This document shows positions 75 through 58,349 of a stretch of DNA of 64,000 nucleotides, in pieces. Position 1 is the stretch's first letter. Each line of letters begins with the position of its first letter. The stretch is from Vermamoeba vermiformis (taxonomy: Eukaryota). The stretch lies in assembly GCA_045837725.1 (NCBI GenBank), contig JBEWZL010000272.1, forward strand, positions 62,001 through 126,000, given 5' to 3'. The translations under genes were made by a program, and so were the position numbers. The notes beneath the pieces were generated by a model, which had not been told where the DNA came from, searched no databases, and was given only the letters and a program-made list of their open reading frames with translations.

Positions 75-3000
75 GTGGCCCCGCGTAAAGTTGCATCAGT
101 GTCGCCTCCTGGCTCGGGAGAATTTGCTGCTGCTGCACGCGATGCAAAAGCCAACAATAGTGCACAAGCGTCTGTTCCTCCCCCTACAGCGCCACGTAAA
201 GTTGGAGTGGCCGTAGAGAGCGGACCACCAAAGGTGTCACCTGTCCCACCTCCAACCGCGCCTAGAAATATACCCAGCACGCCCACAGACCCACGACCGC
301 TATCAATGTCACCCTCAACAACAAGACACGCTCTCACTGTAGACTCACGCCCAGCATCAACGTCTCCATCACTGCCAAGAAACAAGCCCGCAGCAGTTCC
401 CCCTCCGACTGCGCCAAGGAATATACAAAGCACTGAACAACGACCAATGTCTCCACCACCAACAAGAAATACACCTAACAACAGGCCCGAAACACCGCCT
501 CCCGCACCACCTGCCCTAAGAGACTCTACGCCCAAACTTACCGTGCTACTGACCTCGCCTCAAAATTCAAATGACAGCGACAAGTCTCCATTACCCCCGC
601 GTGAAGGCAATGTACCACCCCCAGTCGCTCCGCGAGTAAATGCTACGCAGATCCAAACAACAACCGAGGAGCTACCTACAGTACCCTCCCGGAACCTACC
701 CGTCTCGAATAACAGTGCTACGACCAGACCCATGTCACCTGTTCTGGGTCGAAATAATCCTGCGGCTGCAGCGAAAAAATCAAGCAATCCGTCGACCCCA
801 TCATCTTCGGGAGAGTTTGTCATTCCTAAATCCAACAGTGGACCCACGATACCGCGCGTCAATACTCCGCCACCTGTTGCTCCAAGAACCACGGGAGATG
901 CACCCTTAAATCCAACAACAGTCATCGACCAACCGCCTAAAACTACTGTTCTGCCTCCTGTCGCCCCGAGGAAGGTTGGAGAGCGTGTCGCTACAACCGA
1001 AGAAACGGACCAGCCAACAAAGATTGGTTCAAATCCCAATTTGGTACAGCCTGCCGTTCCAAAGAAAAGTTCAGAAGCGGGCACTGAGTCTGTTGCAGCA
1101 CATAGTCACGGTGTATTAGCTAGCAGCATGCCAACTCGAAGTCAGCCGCACACTGAACTTCGATCATCCACTCCAATTACAACACCGGACAATAAGAAAG
1201 TACCTTTATCTGCTCCCTCGAAGCTTTCATCGAGTCCCGTTGTCGTTGTTCAGACTTCCCAGCCGAAAGGTCCCCCACCAGCACCACCAAAAGTACGAGC
1301 TGAACCTGAGAACGTTGGTGCGGTACCAAAGGAACCACCTCCAGCAACAAAGGAAAGCACGGAGACAACGGACAAGGAGGATGGCACTAAGCTGACCGGT
1401 CCCAGACCCAAATCCGCACCTATAAAAGTTCCAGTTATTCAGGCCAACGTGCAAAGGAAGACAGTGGACGATTCATTGTCTCCACGAAGCGTTATATCAC
1501 CGAGATCTAAATCCCCACCACTCCTCAGCCCAAGATCAATTCAAACAAACCAACAATCTGTACCAGCAATTCTAATCAACGAAGAGCCTAAACCACAGCC
1601 AGCCAGCTTCACGTACTCAAAGCCACTGGTGTCCTTACCACTTGGAGGAACTGACCAAGGAGTAACTCGCTATACTAAGAATGTTCGTCCACCAACTCCA
1701 CCACTCGAAGATGATGCATTAGACCAAGAAGATCAAGGAGTGAGTCATTATTCAAAGAACGCTCAACCGCCGAATCCACCAGAAGATGACACGCAAGACG
1801 TCAAAGATCAAGGAATCACTCGCTATTCGAAGAATGTTAGGCCACCAAGTCCGCGAGGGGACGATGATGGTCCGACAGGCTTAGCTCCTCCGGATACCGA
1901 CACGAAGCGAATATCAGTCGAAGTTGACATCGACCCAATTTCGCTCACACTATCACCAAGAACTCTGCAACAAAAAATACAAGAAGTCGATGAAGGATTC
2001 TTTTACAACGGATTAGATTACTACCTTGACCCAGAAAATCAACCAGATTTCGCCAGTGACTTTCAAGAAGCGAGAAGCAATGGCCCCACTAACTCCAATG
2101 GGACAAATGATGCCAAAGAAGCTCGAAAGTCTGCTTGGGTCAAAGTCACTAAGCCTAAGAGTATAATTTCTCCGCGAGACATCTTGACACCTGATTTGGC
2201 CAAGTAAGTAAAACCACACTGTCAAAGTTAAACTAACGATCTTTTGTATTCAGAGCACGAGGCACAATCGACCCTGATGAGGTAAGCCCATTTAATAGTC
2301 ATCAGTCCAAGTCATTACTAAGTAACGTTTAGCTACCTACACGACCCGTCTCGGTGATGATAGCGAACAGAAACATCAATGACAACGAACCTCCAGAAGA
2401 AGACAGCGGAAATGAAAATGACGCTCCACCAGGCGATGTGCCAGCTGACCCGAAGGAAGATGAAACCGACGAAAACAAGTTGGCAATGAAGGCCAAGAAA
2501 GACCTCAAAAAGATTCAAAAGTTCTTCACCAAAGTTATCCCGAAGAAGCTGGGCATTAACAAAGATAAAGAAGACAAAGACGGTGACTCGAGCGACAGTT
2601 CATCGGACAGCGAGGGCAAACAACGACCTAAAACAGTTGCTTTTGAAGACCCCACGCTGACACCGGAAGAGCGTGAAGAGCGTAGAAAACAACAAGAAGA
2701 GGAAGAGCGACATCCGCAAGGAAGAGAAAGAACGACGAAAACAAGAAAAAGAAGATTAAAACGCGAACAAAAAGAACGAGAAGAAAAGGAGAAAGAAGAG
2801 CGTGACAAAATCAAGCTAGCCGAGAAGGAAGAAAAAGATCGACTTAAACGCGAAGAGAAGGAAAAAGAAGACAAAGAAAAGGAAGAGCGAGACAAGATCA
2901 AACAAGCCGAAAAAGAGAAAGAAAAAGAGCGATTGAAGAAAGAAAAGGAAGAACGCGAAGCAAAAGAAAGAGAAGAGCGAGAAAAAGAAGCTGCGAACAA

Positions 3001-3353
3001 ACCAGCTGCGGCTCCTGTTGCGAACTTCAAGGTCGACAAGAAAGCTCGTAAGTATAACTCATTAAAGCATAAACGCGCATGTCTAACCTGATCTCGTTAG
3101 CAAACATTGCCAAAATTTTGCCAAAACTTAGTGAAGACGACGGAAATAGATTGAATCACGTAAGTCCACACCGTACGCACTACAATAAAGTTTTTTTTCT
3201 GACCTTCCTTCTCAGGCTACCGTTGATAGACCCGCCTTTAAAGGAAGACGACCGCCAACCAGGGTCCTTCGTCCCGGCATCGTCACGAGCGAAGGAGACA
3301 ATGAAATCGACGGCCAAGCTGCACCTACTCCAGCCACACCGATGGAATTTTAA
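75..3353 (+). CDS. Large proline-rich low-complexity protein with SH3-ligand repeats, charged coiled coil and C-terminal CPI (capping protein interaction) motif; 5' end probably upstream of window
   Basis: ORFs 75-2207 and 2354-3091 are joined by short GT-AG introns. Last exons 3101-3159 and 3216-3353 splice to give ...RLNHATVDRPAFKGRRPPTR...PMEF*. Confidence 0.75.
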
Positions 3354-45554: not shown

Positions 45555-47435
45555 CTATTTATGTACGCGAAATTTTAAATGTAAAGGTCGCACGTTTTTC
45601 TGCGGTTTTCTCTCAGGCACGGCTTGCACCGTCCGTAAGTTGGTTTGTAGCGAGATTAAGCGCGAGATATTGCTTTGAAGCGGCGCCACTGCCTCTACGT
45701 CTAAGAGCACCAACCTCTCTAACGCCAATTTAGGCACATTAGCCACGTGATCGATGAACTGTGCTGCTGTCCCAGGTTGTGAGTGACAGTTTACACGACA
45801 AGCCAATGATCGTAATCGTGTTAATTGTGAGAAGGATGGGTATCCACAGATCTTCAGTTCGAGCACTTCGAGACTGGTCAGCGAGTCAATTCCACTGATG
45901 TTGTGGCACGGCAAGTGTTGCAGTCCGGGCGAGGGAGCGGAACAACTCGGACACTGCAGACGAAGTAATGTCACGTGCTGCAATGATGATATGTCCACTG
46001 ACTGCTGCAGAGTGAAGTTGATCAATACTAAACTTTCCAAATTTGGTAATGCGTTGCAAAGTCCTTCCAAGTTGAAATTGAGTGTCGGCTGGTTGGATAA
46101 CGATTTGAATTGCAAGTCTTTCAAATGGCTCAATTTTGCCAAATAAGGCAGAATATCTACCATTGTGTCTAAACAAGCGAAATCTAACTTCGTCAAGTTA
46201 GCTAACACTGATAACTTGGAGATCTGTTCTTCTTTCTGGATGCACTCCAAAATCGGCAATTCCAAATCTTTCAATCGCACCAATTGGTCTACTGGCAGTG
46301 ATTGCAATGGTTCTTTGTAATGAACCTTCAATTGCGTTAAATTTGTGCAATGGTTGAGATTTTCTAACTTGACGTAAAGATCGACGTTCACTATCGCAAG
46401 ACTTTCCAAATTAGGAAACTTCTGCAAATCCACAGTTTTGATTCTAGAACACCTGTAGAGATTCAACCGCCGTAAATTTGTTGTTACGGAGTATAGGCCG
46501 TCGTGGAAAAGATACGACCAACTCAAGGACAAGTCTTTGAGCTCAGTCAACTGTGAGATGTGATGTAGCGCGTTGTTTGATAAGACACTGGACTGCACGC
46601 TTAACTTTGTCAGATGTCTTTGCGAGAGTTCTTTGCAAAGACCGAGGAACTCTACGTCGTCAATGCCAACAAAGCACGAAACTCCACCAATGCCGTGAGA
46701 TGTTTCGTCAATTGCAGCGTGTTGACCGATCCTGCTTCGCACATAGACAAATGCAAGGCTTTGAGTCTATCGAGATGTTTCAACGGCAGCAGTTCCACTA
46801 AACAAAAAATCAGGGGTCAATTGACGTGATTACAGGATCCAAAATATTATCAAAATCGTATTTAGTTTAGGTGCACTTATTATAGCAGTACTTACGCCCT
46901 AACGCAGCACCCTCAGCTTGCGTAAACGATGAAATATTCGGACATTTTTTCAACAGCGATAGAGTCTTGCGCGCTGCAATCAAATCGGGTGCGCGTAAAT
47001 TCATTATTTCAAGCGCGTTGGGCGTTTCCTGGTACCAGGAATTTGATACCGCTTGCAACCTAAATAGAATTTTATTAAAGATTTAATTTTAATTATAATA
47101 ATAAAGCTTTATCACATTAGGACTGCTTTATTTCCGAAAAATTCTATTTCAGAATTTTTGAGCCGAATTCTGGGCACAAATTAATTTTTAAGTAAGATCT
47201 ACCTTATTGCGATATATAACTTGACTTACCGAACAGCGTCTTTCCAACTTAAGTAAGAAAAAATATTGTAGCGTATTTCTTTAGGTAAACCACGAAACGC
47301 ATCTGAATCTTCGAGACTTTCTCCGTAACCTAGCTTTGGCCGCTTTAAGTCCTTTGAAATGTCGTCTGAACGATCCTTATTAATAAAATCATCTGCAAAA
47401 TCGTCGTATTTTCGCTTTTGTGCTTCTGTAGACAT
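45555..47435 (-). CDS. F-box/LRR protein (paralog A), 3 exons; apparent frameshift near 46680
   Basis: FRGLPKEIRYNIFSYLSWKDAVRLQAVS followed by LxxLxL repeats. Confidence 0.85.
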
Positions 47436-47535: not shown

Positions 47536-49480
47536 TCATAACGAAAGGCTGAATTTGTCATCATCGCTCCACTCGGCAGCTTCTTTCTCTTTTTCTTTGA
47601 GCTCATCCGCGTACTGCTGCATCGACCTCTTGAAGCCCATCAAAGATGAAGTATGATAGTTAGAACGGCTCTTTTCGGGAGATGGTGCCGTGCCTACGAG
47701 TAACTCTTGTAACGACGTCTGCAACGTAATTAAACGAGTGATGCTATCGTGGATACTTTTTTCTGCCACGCCTGTTATTTGGAACTTCTCTAACGCTAAC
47801 TTGGGTACGTTAGCCACGTGATCGATGAACTGTGCTGCTGTCACAGGTTGTGAGTGACAGTTCACACGGTAAGTCAGTGATCGTAATCGCGTCAGTTGCG
47901 ACAAGGACGGGTATCCACAGATCTTCAGTTCGAGCACTTCGAGATTGGTCAGCGAGTCAATGCCACTGATTTTGTGGCACGGCAAGTGTTGCAGTCCGGG
48001 CAGGTGAGCGGAGCAATTCGGACAGTCGATAACTAGCGCCGTCAAATGTCGTAACGGTGAGATATTCGGTGCTGATTGGGGTGCCATCCATCCATCCAGG
48101 GTCAAGCTTTCCAAATTTGGCAAGGCATTGCACAAGTCATCAATAGGAAAGTATGCCCTAATGAACGATTTTATAAACAGTGCCTTCAGTTGAGTCAAGC
48201 TCCATAGCGATGAAAAGTTGCTGGCTGGTGAAGGATTGATTAAATCGAGCTTTGTGAGGTGAATCAACGGTGTTAAATTATCGAACTGCTCGTTCGTCGA
48301 GATTTCTGGGTGCATAATGCATTCAAGATCTAGCAATTGAGTCATTTTATGAATCGGCAGTGCTGTCATTGGGAATTTGATATTAGGCTTCAATTGCGTT
48401 AAATTTCCACATTGAGTGATTTTCGCTAAGGCTACAGTCCATGCCGGGTTCTGAACTGTCAAGCTTTCCAAATAAGGAAATAAAGATACATCAAACCCTC
48501 GAATGCTGTGGCATTCATAAAGATTCAACCGCCGCAAATTAGTTGACAAGGGAGGTAGTCCACAGCGTGAATTTTTCAGCGTGAAATCTTTTAGTCCAGT
48601 TAGCAATGATAAGCTCTCCAATCCACGGGAAGTTATTACATTTGTGTCTAATGTCAATCTGGTCAAATGTCTTTGCGAAAATTGAACGCAAAAGTAAGAA
48701 AATATTTCGTCGGCATTAGTGTAATATCCCGTATCTTTCGTTGCCCAAGTCAAGTCCTCCAATGCCTTCAATATGTTCTATCATCTGCTTGAAATCTTCA
48801 AAGTTGCTAACTTGTGTGTGCAGCGATGTCAGTCGATTTAACTGAAACTGACTCAATGCCATTAGCGCCACTATTGCATTTGAAAAATATCAGAATTTGC
48901 ACCAAAACGATATTAAACATTTCTTAAATAAGTTAAACTGCTACTTACGGTGAAATTGATAATAAGGACTACCATACAATTGTGTCAGCGAAGAGATATT
49001 CTTGCTCTTTGATAATATCCACGAAATGTCTCGTGCGTCATTGAGTTCATCGGGTTTAAAATGCAATACTTTTAAGCCATTCATTGTTTCTTGGTACCAC
49101 ATGCTTGATACGGCTCGCAAACTATGACACACAAGAGAGTGTTAGCCACTTTTCGTTATGATAAAAATATTTATGTTCTATCTTAAGATAGAATTGGCAC
49201 TAATTAAATCAGCTTGAAAGATATGATACGTAAGAATTATTATATAAAAAAATTAAAATAATTCAGAAAATTATGAACTTGGTTTGTCCACTTACCGAAC
49301 AGCGTCTTTCCAATTTAAATATGAGAAAATATTTTCTCGTAACTCTGCGGGTAAAACCAGAAGCGGATTCGAATCTAGGGAGCTGTCTGGATCCTGCTTC
49401 TGTCTTTTTTGTTCTCTCTCATCTTGATCGTTTTGAGCGACGTTATCATAGCTTCGTTTGCGTGGTGCTTCAACCGACAT
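47536..49480 (-). CDS. F-box/LRR protein (paralog B), 3 exons; apparent frameshift near 48772
   Basis: LPAELRENIFSYLNWKDAVRLRAVS, LRRs, same intron positions as paralog A. Confidence 0.85.
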
Positions 49481-49659
49481 TGGATTACAACAAAAAACGC
49501 AAGGATTTTTCAAATCAAAAGCGCAAACGTTTTACGGAAAGAACTAAATTTATAAACTAGAAGTACAATGAAAAAAAGAGATAGCATTCCAATACAACTA
49601 CAAGCGTGTAGTCCCGATGCAGTGGGTTTGTATTGAAGTGCGGGTCAGATCTCGATAAC

Positions 49660-52047
49660 TTAGAGCAACAAGAGACCACCGAAGAGAGCAACAGCAGCAG
49701 CGCACACTTGAGCAGCGTGGGCAGAAGAGGCAATGGGAGTCTTAGGCTCGTTAGGAAGAGTACCATCGGCGCTGATAGCGAAGTTTTGGATCTCGTGGCT
49801 GGAAGCTTGTTCGCCCATCAAAGATCGCTTCTTAGCAGGGAGATTGATCTTGGATTCAATCTGGATGTAGAAGGTGCCGGACTTGAGCGTGGCCAAAGGA
49901 GCAGCGCTGAAAGAAACGCCAGAGTTGACCGATGACAAACCGTTAATAGCGTCGTAGACAGCGGTGGCGAATTGATCTTCGAGGACACCAGTAGTGATTT
50001 GACCGTTGAGCACGAGGCGAGAAAGAGGACGAATGTTCCAAGTTTGAGCAGTGCAGCCCAATTGGTTGTTAGTGGGGTTGTAGACAGGAGCAGATCCGTC
50101 AACAGTGTAGCACAACCACACGTTGTAGATGCTGTTGGCATAAGAGTTTTGATCTTGATTGTTTTGAATGGTGACGGTGCTTTTAACGAAGATAGTGTCG
50201 AGCGAAGTGTAAGTGGTCTTTTGTTGAGATCCAGTGAAGGCGTTAGAATCCCAGAAAGACAGGACGGTAGGCAAGGTCAAACCGTTGTTGTTGTACGAGT
50301 TGCTAACGGACAGCGAGAGGGTGAATTGAGCGGTGACGGTTTGAGTCGCAGTGCCGTCAGTACGAGTGAATGAGATGGCGTAAGCACCGGAGTAGTCAGT
50401 GACTGGAGTAGAGGTCTTGAAGGTCCAGATCTGTTGTTGAGTGTTGGAAGGAGTAGGGTTGGCAGCAGCAAGATCAACACCGTTGGGCTTAGTTCCGACA
50501 GAAGGAGAGGTCAAGCTGAAAAAATTGGAGGTCAGATCTTGCTCAAAAAATAATTCGAAGTAAATGTTAAATTAAAACTTACTAGTAGCCAGTGTTCATG
50601 GCGTTGGTAGCAAGAGACATGGCGAGGTTACCATCGGCTTGAATATAGAGCGAGGAGATCGAGAAAGCGAAGATGTTGTTGTCAGTACCAGAGCTGATCG
50701 AGGTCGAAGAGACGGAGAATGAAACAAAGAAGGGCATAGTGAATTGAACAGTTTGGAAACCAGCAGAAGCGTCCAAGGGGTTAACAGCCTTAACAGCAGT
50801 GACGTAGAGAGTACCTAAAACGCATCCGATCAGGAAATTATTCTTTTTTTAGACCTGAAATTAATCCTTACCGTTATATTGAATGGAGTTACCGACAATA
50901 GTGCGTATGATAGAGGGAGTAGTACCATCAGCTTGCTTGCAGCTCAATAAGTCGTTGAAGGAGAATCCGGGAGTGGTGTAAGTAACCTTATCGCAACCAT
51001 TGCTGGAAACGGTCCATTTGGGAGAACTATTTGAATAATTTTGATTAGAATATGTCCGCAATTCACGGTTTGGAGGTCATTGCCAAGAAAGGAAATTGAA
51101 AAATTCCGTGGCAAGATCCGAAAATACATTAAAATACTTACGAAGAGCCAATACGATAGGCCAAGTAGTTCTTGCTGTTAAGAGCACCAGAGTAAGTAGC
51201 AGAAGGAGCGGCGTTCCAAAATTCGGCGAAGTTTCTACCGCTGAGATCAGCAGCTTGTCTGTTCTCGCAGTTGGTAGCAGCCAAACCATTAGTACCTAAA
51301 TAAGTAAATATGAGTACGTCTACTCGGCTACGACACTATTATCGCAATAATTACCCTTAGCGTAATCACTAGTGAAGGGAGCAAAGTCAATAACCCAAGT
51401 GTAGCCTTGGAGCAAGTATTTTGCAACAATATCGAAGTGGAACAATTGTTGGTTGTTGTCGTATTCGATAGTGATAACAGGTTGAGGAGGAGAAACAGTC
51501 GAGGTACCAACAGGGTTGAAGATGGCAGAACAAGTAGGATCTGAAGTCAATCTGTTGCCGACTAAAATTTAAATTCGTTAAAAACCATTCTATCGCGATT
51601 AATTGATAAAAAACTTACCCTTGAGCGAAGAGCTGCTGTAGACGTTTTCAGCATTGCCGTTGTTGGTGTCAACAGTCTTCAAGTTAATGTAGATCGTGTA
51701 GTCCTCTGGGAGTGGGGTGGCAAAGGTCTCGACAATAGTATTGACAGCTTGAGGACTGTTGATTTGGGTCCAAGTCAATATTTCGGTGCTACCAGCAGAA
51801 TGCCAATTGAGTAGAAAACATTAATACCAGCCAAAGAGCCTAAACCGCTCAAATCCGCTCGGAAGGACAAGAAGTAGGCTACAGAAACATTATAAATTAA
51901 TATTTGCGTTGTATTATTAATTGAGATGTACTTACGAGATGTCTGACGATCAATATTAGAGATGAAGCCGTGATTGATCGTTTGAGCATTGGCAAGAGCT
52001 AAGATCGCAAGTACGAAGAAAGCGAATGAACGGATAGAGCGAGCCAT
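49660..52047 (-). CDS. Secreted, probably GPI-anchored protein: FN3-like domain plus FRAS1/FREM C-terminal-like (ZP-like) module; apparent frameshift near 51800
   Basis: Signal peptide; about 7 exons; QQIWTF...DYSGAY, SIYNVWLCYTVDGSAPVYNP...GC, KKRS site, hydrophobic C-terminus. Confidence 0.8.
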
Positions 52048-53595
52048 AATTGACCAATTAAGTTACTAACTGATCAACTTGTTGTTGCTTGTTTGTTTGT
52101 TGATTAGAAATGACGACCGGACTTGCTATTTATTCTTGTAACGGAATATTCGGCCAAAGGAACAATTGACCAGCATGCCACGAATAGACGCAGAGATTAG
52201 GACCTGAGATTTATATTGTTCAGCTCTAAATAGAAATTGCGGATTATCTGATCCAAAATATTACCAAATTAAGAACGGAATAATAATAAATCGGTTGTCG
52301 TTCACGAATATTAAACGGGTAAAAACCGATACGTATGTCTCGAATATAATTTTTGCTATTAATGCACGGATGCACTCCTTCTAAAAATACTCGACGGAGT
52401 TTACAATCTAACTAATGCCTCATTGTTATTGCACATTCGAGTATTAGTAAACCTAATTAATCTATGTCATATGATGAAGACATACATTATGGACTCAATA
52501 AGGCGAAAGTGGAAGTATTCCTAAGATTCACAAATTTCATGCGATCCATTTTTAAAAGTCTCGCTACTCCATGAATGATTCAAGAACGATAATTTATCGC
52601 GCTGAAGACGACAAATAGACGTAATATGGCGTGCAAATAAGCAATAGGTAAGTTATATAAGGTGTCTTAACGTACCATAGTACACTACGGGTGTCAATTG
52701 AATCCACTTTTGAGATGCTTTGTGCACGTGCTTAATTATAGAAGTACTATTGCACTATTGCGCTCCAATACGCTTTCAATTGCTTCTCAGCGTTACTTTG
52801 TAACCCAGCAGTGGATTTGATCTGGATGTGTTCAGCACTAAATCGGTCAATGTGAGCTTAACGTAAATATTCCGTTATCTAATACGTACGAGATGAACGG
52901 AGAGCTTACATCGAGATATTATTATGGCCCATTTGAATATATCTCTCAAGAGCGGCATATTAAGTGTTTAAATATATCGAAAATTTTCGCTTTGGAAGTA
53001 AGTCCAAGCACTCTAGCTGCAGTGAGATCGCGAGATACAGACTTAATATGCCGCTACAGCTGTGCATATATTGAAATGATACAAAGGCTGTTAGGTAGGT
53101 GCAACTAGCTCATCTGGGCAAAACTACAATAACAGGTCAGTAAAGGATTAATATATTGTGCAATAGTCTTTGTAGCAAAGACGTTAAAATTGTAGCACGG
53201 ACTAGCGCAATTAAATTTGCCATCACTAAACGAAGCTTGAATTCGGATGTAAAATCAAACGTATTGCTGATCTCTACTGTTATCATTTGTCGCTCTTGCA
53301 AGTATTATTTTAATATTTATTTTATTATTATTACGTAAATAAATAATATTTCGCTTGATTATTAATTTTTGGCGCAAATCCGGCAGAACGCTATTAAACT
53401 TACCCATCCTTACAATTCTCGGATATCATTTCGTGGTTTCATAGGCGCTTGGTCCATCTTATCACAGCATTATTGTTGTGCTGTGGGGAGAACGCAGGCC
53501 TTTCTGAAAAATGATTTCTTGGGCAGATCTTGTTTGCTCGCAAGAACCCGACGGACTAACACGAATCAATTGTATATTAATATACTATATTCAAG

Positions 53596-56251: not shown

Positions 56252-57886
56252 TTAATCATCGTTGGAAGGTTTAGCGAGAACACTTTTGCCACGTTTGCGA
56301 ACAATTTTCATTTTGACGAGCGAAGCAATGTCACGACAATCGATCTGATTGGTGAACAGCGCCAGTGCAATCTGATCAAAGCCTGGCACTCCTCCGCACA
56401 CCACGTGCTTGAACACGTGCAACCAAATCTCCAATGGAAGCAGCGACACCAAGTCTTCAGTTCTGCGTGCCATGTTGACGAGTGTTGTCATCACATTCGA
56501 GATCAATGCTCGTTGATGACGTTTGTTCCTGTTCTGCGCATCAATCAGCTGCTCCAATGACGCAGCACTGATCTTCTTGTCTTTGGTGATGGACAGCTCT
56601 GTCACTGATTGGTTCGTTTGCATCGCTGCAACGAGTGCTGCACATCCTTGCGCACCAATGTCGTTGCCATTCAGATTGACATGCATCAAGCACGGATTGA
56701 CTGCCAGTGCTGCAGCGAGGTGTGTGCAGCCCTCTGATTTGATTGCACAGTCTTGCAGCACAACGTAACACAAGCGAGTGTTGACTCTCAGTCCGTCAGC
56801 GAGCCATTGTGCTCCTTCTGATCCGATCTTGTTGTGCGTCATATTCAGCGCGGTGAGTGTTTTGTTGTGTTTCAGCATGGTGCCGAGCCATTTGCATCCT
56901 TCAGCGCTGATGTTGTTGAACGACAGATCCAGTTCTGTCATTTTGTCGTTCACTGAAACATACTTGGCCAGTGTTTCACAGCATTTTGAATCTAATTTTG
57001 TGTTGCGTAAGTTGATGCTTGTTAATAATCCACATGAGCCTTTGAAGTCAATATCTCGAAACAAATTATTCAGACCATCAGATCCAATTCCGTTACTGCT
57101 CAAATCGACGTGCATTAGTACCTTATTGTTCTTCAGTACTTCGTTAATGTAAATACATTCGTTTTGTCTGATTGTTGATTGATTGACATCAAGTTCCGTC
57201 AATGACGAGTTCATTTTCAATCCGCCAAAGAACTCTTTCCAGCCTTCTGACGGAACGTACAGCAATTGACTTAAATTCAAATACGTCAATGTTGCATTCT
57301 CTTTCAATAACTCTCCAAGAGCTTTGCATCCACTGGCTCTGAAATGATTAAAGCTCAAATCCAAAGAAGTAATTTTGCTGTTCGTCTTGAGTGCCTCCGC
57401 AATATGTTCTACGCCTTCGTCTGGTACGCTGCAAGAAGCTAAACTCAGGCTTGTCAATGATTGGTTCGATTTTAAGCCAGTGCTGAACGCTTCACAATCA
57501 GAGCCACCTAACTCCACGCCATCAAGTTTCAAACTCTTGATTGTACTGTTTTTCATTAACAACTGTTTAAATGCTTCTCCGACGTAAAATGCGCCGCTAT
57601 TCCACAGGTACGCTTCCTCGAGAACTTTGAATTTAAGCTCTTCAATTGAGTCGTTGTAGAATAATCCGTTAAAACTTGCTGGACAGGATTTGAAACTTTC
57701 AATTTGAAGCGATAGTCGTTTCAGGGAACGAGTTAATTTCAAGGCTCGGCCGAAAGCTTCGTAAGCTGCATTTGCTTGCAAATAGACGTCGAGTTTATCG
57801 GCAAGTATCTCTAATTCATCTGGTGTGTCTAGAAGATCATAAGAATCACTTTGTTTGATTATTTGAAGCTTGGATTTTTTGCTCAT
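56252..57886 (-). CDS. Intronless RNI-like LRR protein with C-terminal F-box-like motif
   Basis: 28-aa repeats such as LKTNSKITSLDLSFNHF; LLPLEIWLHVFKHV near the C-terminus. Confidence 0.88.
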   Translation of the reverse strand: MSKKSKLQIIKQSDSYDLLDTPDELEILADKLDVYLQANAAYEAFGRALKLTRSLKRLSLQIESFKSCPASFNGLFYNDSIEELKFKVLEEAYLWNSGAFYVGEAFKQLLMKNSTIKSLKLDGVELGGSDCEAFSTGLKSNQSLTSLSLASCSVPDEGVEHIAEALKTNSKITSLDLSFNHFRASGCKALGELLKENATLTYLNLSQLLYVPSEGWKEFFGGLKMNSSLTELDVNQSTIRQNECIYINEVLKNNKVLMHVDLSSNGIGSDGLNNLFRDIDFKGSCGLLTSINLRNTKLDSKCCETLAKYVSVNDKMTELDLSFNNISAEGCKWLGTMLKHNKTLTALNMTHNKIGSEGAQWLADGLRVNTRLCYVVLQDCAIKSEGCTHLAAALAVNPCLMHVNLNGNDIGAQGCAALVAAMQTNQSVTELSITKDKKISAASLEQLIDAQNRNKRHQRALISNVMTTLVNMARRTEDLVSLLPLEIWLHVFKHVVCGGVPGFDQIALALFTNQIDCRDIASLVKMKIVRKRGKSVLAKPSNDD

Positions 57887-58349
57887 TTCTAAACGAACGT
57901 TAGATCAGCATAAATAAATTAAATTTTAATTGAAAAATCCGAATAATTACGCGAGTTAAAATTGAATAATTATAGGAGAATATTAATATTAAATATATAT
58001 TTAAATTTCTTGCAATTTAATTTGCAACGAGAAACAAATTATCAATACTTACGTGCTTAGCGCTAAGTGTTAAAGTTCCAGCTGCTGTTGATCGATCCAC
58101 TCACCGTGCTGCAGCTCGTGACACTGAATGAAATGAATGACTGTTGCTTCCATTAATAAGCTTGCTTTCTGTAATTTTTCTGGCAGTTAGGACTGCACCC
58201 ACGTGCCCTTTGGGACTGCATTAAAGTGGCCAAAAATAGAAGTAGAAGAGGCTCCAAATAAGATAATTGTTGCGAGATTTGTACAGTCTTCAAGTCAAAA
58301 TAATAACAACAAATAAGCGCAAAGGTGGACTATCAACGCGAGCGTAAAA

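Follow-up and report, generated by a model that had tools for sequence, protein, structure and literature searches.

A gene in the amoeba Vermamoeba vermiformis raises the question of whether a protein outside animals can carry part of the FRAS1/FREM matrix proteins and, if so, what this part might do. The gene lies on the minus strand, at positions 52047..49660, of a 64,000-nucleotide stretch of contig JBEWZL010000272.1 (hereafter the window, to which all coordinates refer). Reading of the splice sites, all canonical, in 49560-52120 gave seven exons and a product of ~658 amino acids, with a single break in the reading frame. A first-pass annotation, made from the DNA letters alone, had described the product as a surface protein built on the C-terminal module of FRAS1/FREM proteins, with processing signals resembling those of zona pellucida (ZP) proteins.

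In this study, we compared the protein with its relatives, with vertebrate FREM tails and with known structures. The reading that we favor, with a rough probability of 0.65, is that the gene encodes a secreted precursor with a glycosylphosphatidylinositol (GPI)-type anchor, which carries an ancient FREM-tail module and would be cleaved at a KKR site to build a coat or wall polymer.

The FREM2/FREM3 tail and the protist family

An exhaustive phmmer search of 1.84 billion representative proteins with the last exon (284 amino acids) returned 28 matches at E <= 0.001. Among them was P0021 (E 4e-5), which belongs to a 90%-identity cluster with the full-length FREM3 of two skates (3127 and 3133 amino acids). 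The exon and P0021 are 26% identical over 235 columns (pairwise BLASTP E 1e-13). A hidden Markov model (HMM) built from 15 protist sequences scored 70-78 bits for six tested members of the skate FREM3 cluster, i.e., E values of 1e-14 to 4e-17 at a search space of 1.84 billion, with a bias of 0 and a match to profile positions 306-628. An HMM of the C-terminal half scored 59-71 bits for FREM2/FREM3 of opossum, caecilian, salmon, coelacanth and skate. In addition, hhalign comparison of the protist alignment with 12 vertebrate tails gave a probability of 99.1 (E 8.9e-19). When the module was split, the C-terminal half (P0041 residues 346-656) retained a probability of 99.0 (E 3.5e-18, 249 columns), and three controls with mismatched halves gave 0.0-0.3. 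These profile comparisons, which cover FREM2 and FREM3 of vertebrates, indicate that the last ~310 residues are very probably homologous to the juxtamembrane tail that follows the Calx-beta repeats in these proteins.

The likeness over these ~310 residues includes an SMRI..GRL strand, the motifs QQW..DYSGTY, KVFLC...YNPTNNEFGC, GFS.AS.PL and WYIH, and, further on, a basic site, an NIQHIAL strand and then an anchor. The first-pass annotation had paired nine short strings with sequences of human FREM2. Near-identical strings occur in the same order in skate FREM3 (P0045/P0021), and seven of the nine pairs fall inside the supported alignment; the other two, FSFNDLLSC and GTLYVTAV, are co-linear but carry no independent significance. 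A search with the FREM3 tail found 531 proteins, and the 120 listed were of the vertebrate FREM2/FREM3 type, with 72-94% identity. Precomputed Pfam lists assign no family to the FREM2/FREM3 tail, and a sequence search of the PDB with the FREM3 tail gave 0 matches.

The amoebal protein has this module in common with FREM proteins and falls outside the FRAS1/FREM family, because the other hallmark domains are absent. The CSPG repeat (Cadherin_3, PF16184) had no match in the exons at E <= 1 or in the intact relative P0002 at E <= 0.1, and neither Calx-beta (PF03160) nor Frem_N (PF19309) matched the window exons or P0002. A module free of CSPG and Calx-beta repeats is what the first-pass annotation had proposed. 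Among the 120 FREM2/3 proteins listed, PF16184 and PF03160 occur in all and PF19309 in most. Thus, FREM proteins of ~3100 amino acids contrast with an amoebal protein of ~658 amino acids that lacks all three domains and shows no FREM resemblance in the half upstream of the shared module. The C-termini differ as well: skate FREM3 P0045 has a transmembrane helix and a 37-residue tail ending in ...SSEV, presumably a PDZ-binding motif, whereas the amoebal product ends in a GPI-like hydrophobic segment.

Three of the phmmer matches (P0013, P0016 and P0023) are cadherin/Big_9 repeat proteins whose scores come from 8-14 short stretches, and they were set aside as probably unrelated. The other matches form one family of 500-920-residue proteins with a conserved module of ~480 residues. 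The protist profile search found 16 close relatives. Three members carry a species name: Vermamoeba vermiformis P0177, Acrasis kona P0015, which is encoded on a genome contig of 83 kb, and Pharyngomonas kirbyi P0019. They span Amoebozoa (Tubulinea) and two classes of Heterolobosea. With an X at the frame break, the 658-residue window product is colinear over its whole length with intact proteins of 652-661 residues, and its identity is 87% to P0172 (659 columns), 82% to P0041 and 62% to P0177. The N-terminal half of the protist module (P0041 ~130-345; exons 3-6, 51561-50583) has no Pfam family and is kept from Vermamoeba to Acrasis, with the motifs PP.P, TWVIDF, NCENR, AP.A..ALN..YLAY and LL.C. 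In the distant members P0017, P0018, P0019 and P0027, the module is preceded by a C-type lectin domain, by EGF repeats, or by DUF11 and PSI domains together, and in one distant member a transmembrane helix lies downstream of it, with an RGS domain on the cytoplasmic side. These contexts hint at receptor-like uses of the module. When language-model features of 49663-50514 were compared in the ESM Atlas, the three nearest clusters (0.94-0.92) consisted of eukaryotic proteins, with diatoms as the commonest source, which are possible further relatives outside the named groups.

A maximum-likelihood tree built on the C-terminal half places the window protein in a 12-row clade (support 100/99) together with the Vermamoeba protein and several paralogue lineages. 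The FREM clade stands apart on a branch of length 3.1, and its diversity is far below that of the protist sequences. The tree is unrooted, with many long branches and unsettled deep forks, and we used it only to place the window protein beside Vermamoeba. This placement, the short introns and the F-box/leucine-rich repeat (LRR) neighbors point to an amoebozoan close to Vermamoeba. The first-pass annotation had likewise taken the gene for that of a protist. A metazoan origin of the contig was rejected, since the nearest named relative is from Vermamoeba and more relatives occur in Heterolobosea.

Processing signals and predicted fold

The strings that had been singled out in the window, i.e., a signal peptide, YSIG/SAGSTEILTW, KKRS, HEIQNFAI and a hydrophobic tail, are all present. 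The start codon and a 22-residue signal peptide (MARSIRSF...ALANA/Q), read from the translation rather than by a predictor, occupy 51982..52047 on the minus strand, which carries all features of the gene. The peptide has a positively charged start, a hydrophobic core and the end ...ANA|Q, and it is conserved in P0041, P0002 and P0172. A sub-threshold Cadherin_5 match aside, Pfam gave nothing for the exons at E <= 1. The stretch around YSIG/SAGSTEILTW had been labeled FN3-like; this label found no support, as the stretch has no Pfam match and the model shows just a beta-rich N-terminal domain. At the other end, ...SSAHAAQ is followed by 15 hydrophobic residues and the stop. This tail (49663..49707), with small residues (SSA) before it and no cytoplasmic residues, resembles a GPI-attachment signal. 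The 26-row family alignment is the source of all layout counts given here; 15 rows end in a terminal hydrophobic segment of GPI-like type, 7 continue past a transmembrane helix into a cytoplasmic tail and 4 remain unclassed.

In the AlphaFold2 model of the last exon, an Ig-like beta domain (50290..50514, with the motif QQIW...DYSGAY) occupies the position where ZP-N would be expected. The domain that follows (49834..50280), ZP-C-like in the prediction, contains a near-invariant cysteine pair (NVWLCY and GC) and a G-x-S-F-x-A-x-P-L motif. Directly behind its last core strand is KKRS (49822..49833), a conserved di/tribasic candidate convertase site, and next comes a beta-strand (49774..49809) that would be the positional equivalent of the external hydrophobic patch (EHP) of ZP proteins; HEIQNFAI (49797-49774) lies inside it. 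Basic motifs located 13-20 residues past the start of the last core strand occur in 21 of the 26 rows, FREM3 included. In most rows they precede a strand of alternating hydrophobic residues, such as IQAFAI, IKAFEI, VGLFAL or IASFYV, and NIQHIAL in FREM3. Skate FREM3 P0045 carries two basic sites in the stretch that separates its last core strand from NIQHIAL (residues ~2979-3010): GKR, which aligns with KKR (49833-49825), and RNRR further on.

Template-free AlphaFold2 predictions had a mean pLDDT (predicted local distance difference test score) of 75 for intact P0041 (26-row alignment) and 81.7 for the last exon of the window gene (32-row alignment). With the exon model, the top six Foldseek matches in the PDB were all ZP modules or ZP-C domains (E 5.6e-5 to 7.9e-4), namely the endoglin ZP module, ZP-C of ZP2, ZP-C of TGFBR3, the polymerization region of uromodulin and two betaglycan ZP-C entries; just 7 matches reached E <= 0.001. 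In an unbiased structure search of 48,161 chains, the top seven rows were all ZP-C bearers. In a separate structural comparison, whole ZP modules (rows 7-9) aligned over both domains for 186-208 residues, with a high root-mean-square deviation of 27-36 Å. Foldseek searches with the full-length model gave generic multi-Ig matches with TM (template modeling) scores of 0.10-0.18 and were uninformative, except for endoglin at rank 49. Language-model features, which we treat as a lead only, placed ZP clusters at 0.85-0.79 for the window exon, behind the three diatom clusters, and at 0.93-0.89 for the FREM3 tail when Calx-beta-bearing clusters were left out. Judging from the predicted model, the domain before KKR probably has a ZP-C-like fold.

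The extent of the structural alignments is informative with regard to the strand behind KKR. This strand corresponds to model residues 236-247, with pLDDT block means of 73 and 86. The uncleaved precursors 5bup, 3qw9 and 4wrn align to model residue ~250, i.e., through this strand, whereas alignments of the mature filament subunits 28yj, 8rki and 6tql stop at 227-238. Therefore, the post-KKR strand appears to take the place of the EHP as the last strand of ZP-C. The ZP parallel, which had been drawn from the order of cleavage site, hydrophobic patch and anchor, thus extends beyond layout to the predicted ZP-C fold before KKR and to the strand at the EHP position.

Gene structure and neighboring genes

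The introns measure, in order, 57, 57, 59, 115, 57 and 67 nucleotides, with GTAAG or GTAAT donors and TAG or CAG acceptors. We mapped four public runs (X1, X4 and the RNA runs X22 and X24) on 49500-52200 and found joints with GT..AG ends for introns 1, 2, 3, 5 and 6. Exon 1 (51936..52047) is joined to exon 2 at 51878/51936, with 57 bases skipped; this joint was seen in 6 raw reads of X22, 16 of X24 and one X4 contig. Exon 2 (51619..51878) encodes the beta-rich N-terminal domain without a Pfam family and holds the frame break. Exon 3 (51355..51561), where the protist-wide conserved module starts (PPQP..., TWVIDF), is joined at 51561/51619 in an X4 contig, and exon 4 (51142..51295; NCENR..., AP.A..ALNSKNYLAY) at ~51295/51355, also in an X4 contig. 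For the 115-nucleotide intron 4, before exon 5 (50872..51026), depth was zero in the two RNA runs and also in X4, a run that is only presumed to be RNA. Exon 6 (50583..50814), joined at ~50814/50872 in an X4 contig, contains in its 3' part (SLYIQADGNLAMSLAT) the start of the FREM-related half. Exon 7 (49660..50515), joined at 50515/50583 in three X4 contigs, comprises 284 codons and the stop and encodes the FREM-related, ZP-like part.

The raw RNA reads carry the same species label, and they are mostly 90-95% alike to the window and fit it only in part. They show transcription and splicing of this pattern in a close relative or paralogue, not expression of the window locus. In a few RNA reads (2 and 6), 112 bases at 50815-50928 were skipped with non-canonical TA..CA ends, which probably represents cross-mapping from a paralogue. 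Within the 64-kb window, tblastn found a single copy of the gene.

Directly downstream, on the minus strand, 47536-49531 appears to be a single F-box/LRR gene. It consists of a short open reading frame (ORF) at 49292-49531, with a LPAELRENIFSYL-type F-box-like motif and no Pfam match at E <= 0.01, followed by a 413-amino-acid LRR ORF at 47536-48777. LRR-rich ORFs also flank the gene at 45555-46766 and 56252-57904, both on the minus strand, and the latter has six LRR_6 (RNI-type) repeats (E 6.6e-30). Together, these ORFs look like a local LRR gene cluster. On the plus strand, an ORF at 5488-6135 matches the Diaphanous FH3 domain (E 4.3e-9) and probably represents a formin exon. A 734-amino-acid frame at 3-2207, also on the plus strand, is open at the start of the window and has no Pfam family; this stretch has an unusually high AT skew of 0.287.

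Proposed cleavage and assembly, and alternative explanations

In the mechanism that we propose, the precursor would be secreted and held at the cell surface by its GPI-type C-terminal signal. Its module would be arranged as an Ig-like domain, a ZP-C-like beta-sandwich, KKR, a strand completing the sandwich, a short linker and the anchor. A kexin/furin-type protease would cut at KKR and separate the ectodomain from a membrane-bound, GPI-anchored propeptide bearing the last strand. The opened domain could then bind strands of neighboring molecules and form an extracellular coat or wall polymer. By analogy, cleavage at KKR has about an even chance, and polymerization of the ectodomain is a more tentative suggestion, with odds against it. 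We infer the coat or cyst-wall role from ZP modules and from the processing of Fras1 and Frem2.

Both precedents involve release from the membrane. The release of Fras1/Frem2 is reported to depend on furin or proprotein convertases and to be required for their placement in the basement membrane (PMC2855323). In ZP proteins, including GPI-anchored uromodulin, the EHP strand resides in the C-terminal propeptide, release from the anchored precursor is protease-dependent, and after EHP release a strand of another subunit takes its place and starts filament growth (PMC7737619).

Several observations weigh against the proposed reading, and some of them would also fit an ordinary GPI-anchored adhesin or receptor made of Ig-like domains. 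In such a protein, the likeness to ZP-C would be a generic likeness of Ig folds, the basic site would serve at most for shedding, and no polymer would form, as with the ligand-binding ZP-C of endoglin and betaglycan. With regard to FREM, the N-terminal half of the module gave an hhalign probability of only 0.2 against the FREM upstream region, and the likeness claimed earlier for the whole region of ~400 residues was therefore dropped and kept for the last ~310. The reverse search with the vertebrate profile, which has low diversity, was weak: it recovered 5 of 16 protist targets with a best score of 33 bits, and the window product scored 28.4 bits (E 0.046 at large Z). A word-indexed search of long proteins with the protist profile found none among 8000 candidates, which is weak evidence; FREM3 does match the local HMM. 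As three of the 28 phmmer matches were cadherin/Big_9 proteins, a low E value alone is no proof. A ZP signal is also lacking at the sequence level. Neither Zona_pellucida (PF00100) nor ZP-N (PF23344) matched the exons at E <= 1 or the scanned relatives at E <= 0.1, and neither appears in the precomputed FREM2/3 Pfam lists; the last exon had 0 sequence matches in the PDB, and the family profile found 0 chains at E <= 10. ZP modules have four conserved cysteines in ZP-N and four or more in ZP-C; the amoebal ZP-C-like domain has two near-invariant cysteines, and the preceding Ig-like domain of the window protein has none of the four of ZP-N. ZP-C is itself an Ig-type sandwich, and its lead over generic Ig domains is ~3-4 Z units for a predicted model. 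Endoglin and betaglycan (TGFBR3) ZP-C, which are among the best structural matches, are not known to polymerize, and both proteins are reportedly signaling co-receptors rather than filament formers. The basic site is missing in 5 of the 26 members (P0015, P0017, P0018, P0019 and P0020). Nevertheless, an adhesin or receptor without assembly seems unlikely to us: ZP-C bearers took all of the top seven places among 48,161 chains, the basic site and the next strand are conserved from amoebae to FREM3, the post-KKR strand matches the EHP strand in alignments with ZP precursors, and Fras1/Frem2 reportedly reach the matrix only after furin-dependent release.

Other explanations concern the locus and its history. 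The window copy is out of frame, a further point against our reading, and it might be a dead paralogue in which the gap in exon 2 is real, so that the locus makes no protein and the family functions elsewhere in the genome. The joined coding sequence of 1976 nucleotides is 2 mod 3, with an early stop after the break, and the single frame change falls between YSIG and SAGSTEILTW (51798..51800), where the window is one base short and relatives read YSIG-I/T-SAG.... An indel had been suspected near 51800, and an extra base was indeed present at 51798/51799 in all four mapped runs: a T behind 51798 in 3 of 3 and 6 of 6 RNA reads, and a G behind 51799 in one DNA-type contig each of X1 and X4. The reading frame is unbroken here in P0041 and P0002, and the family has several paralogue lineages. 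We nevertheless consider a dead copy rather doubtful. The ~590 codons from the break to the stop of the gene remain open, every splice site is intact, the product is 87% identical to an intact relative, and the frame is intact in a DNA contig that is nearly identical to the window (X1 record 6; 3 differing letters in 254 bases). Furthermore, the gap sits in a short T run of the coding strand, a place where assemblies err, and the mapped runs are not tied to the window's own strain. The one-base gap goes back either to a mistake in the assembly or to a very recent lesion confined to the strain. Still another explanation is horizontal transfer between animals and protists, in either direction, or contaminated protist records, in which case a pre-animal origin of the module would not follow. 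The patchy spread (three named protist genera, vertebrate FREM2/3 and environmental sequences) and the unrooted tree agree with it. It appears very unlikely, given a 64-kb genomic window with introns of 57-115 nucleotides and F-box/LRR neighbors, the Acrasis protein on its 83-kb contig, protist diversity far above that of the long-branched FREM clade and an identity to FREM of only 26%.

The amoebal protein also differs from known ZP proteins. Uromodulin and the egg-coat proteins ZP1-4/ZPD are polymerizing animal proteins with a Pfam-recognizable ZP and the full cysteine set, whereas the amoebal protein is non-animal, has no Pfam match and has two cysteines in its ZP-C-like domain. Standalone or cysteine-reshuffled ZP-C domains of nematodes indicate that ZP disulfide patterns vary and that ZP-C occurs without ZP-N (PMC7456536); these domains are animal and recognizable by sequence, unlike the amoebal family. 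The ZP module is described as conserved "from hydra to humans" (PMC7737619), and a 2026 preprint lists ZP among canonical metazoan domains undetected in the dictyostelid Dictyostelium giganteum. A search of the literature outside subscription journals turned up no report of a link between ZP domains and FRAS1/FREM or of such a module in amoebae. The element is best called a cysteine-poor, sequence-cryptic ZP-C-type module with a cleavage site, an EHP-like strand and an anchor, present outside animals and common to FREM.

The module shared with FREM may be older than animals. A bolder proposal, which we consider speculative and on balance improbable, is that the Fraser-complex proteins have a cryptic, cysteine-poor ZP module as their juxtamembrane tail and that ZP-type assembly, in which a protease takes a strand-donating propeptide off a membrane-anchored precursor and the opened ZP-C polymerizes, is pre-animal; the module would be used on its own in Amoebozoa and Heterolobosea for a coat or cyst wall, and animals would have fused it to CSPG and Calx-beta repeats for anchoring cords. 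If true, an unannotated part of the human Fraser syndrome proteins would gain a fold and a testable activation mechanism, and a matrix-assembly device held to be an animal invention would move back to amoebae of two eukaryotic supergroups. Vermamoeba and other free-living amoebae would, in turn, gain a candidate structural protein of their coat or cyst wall.

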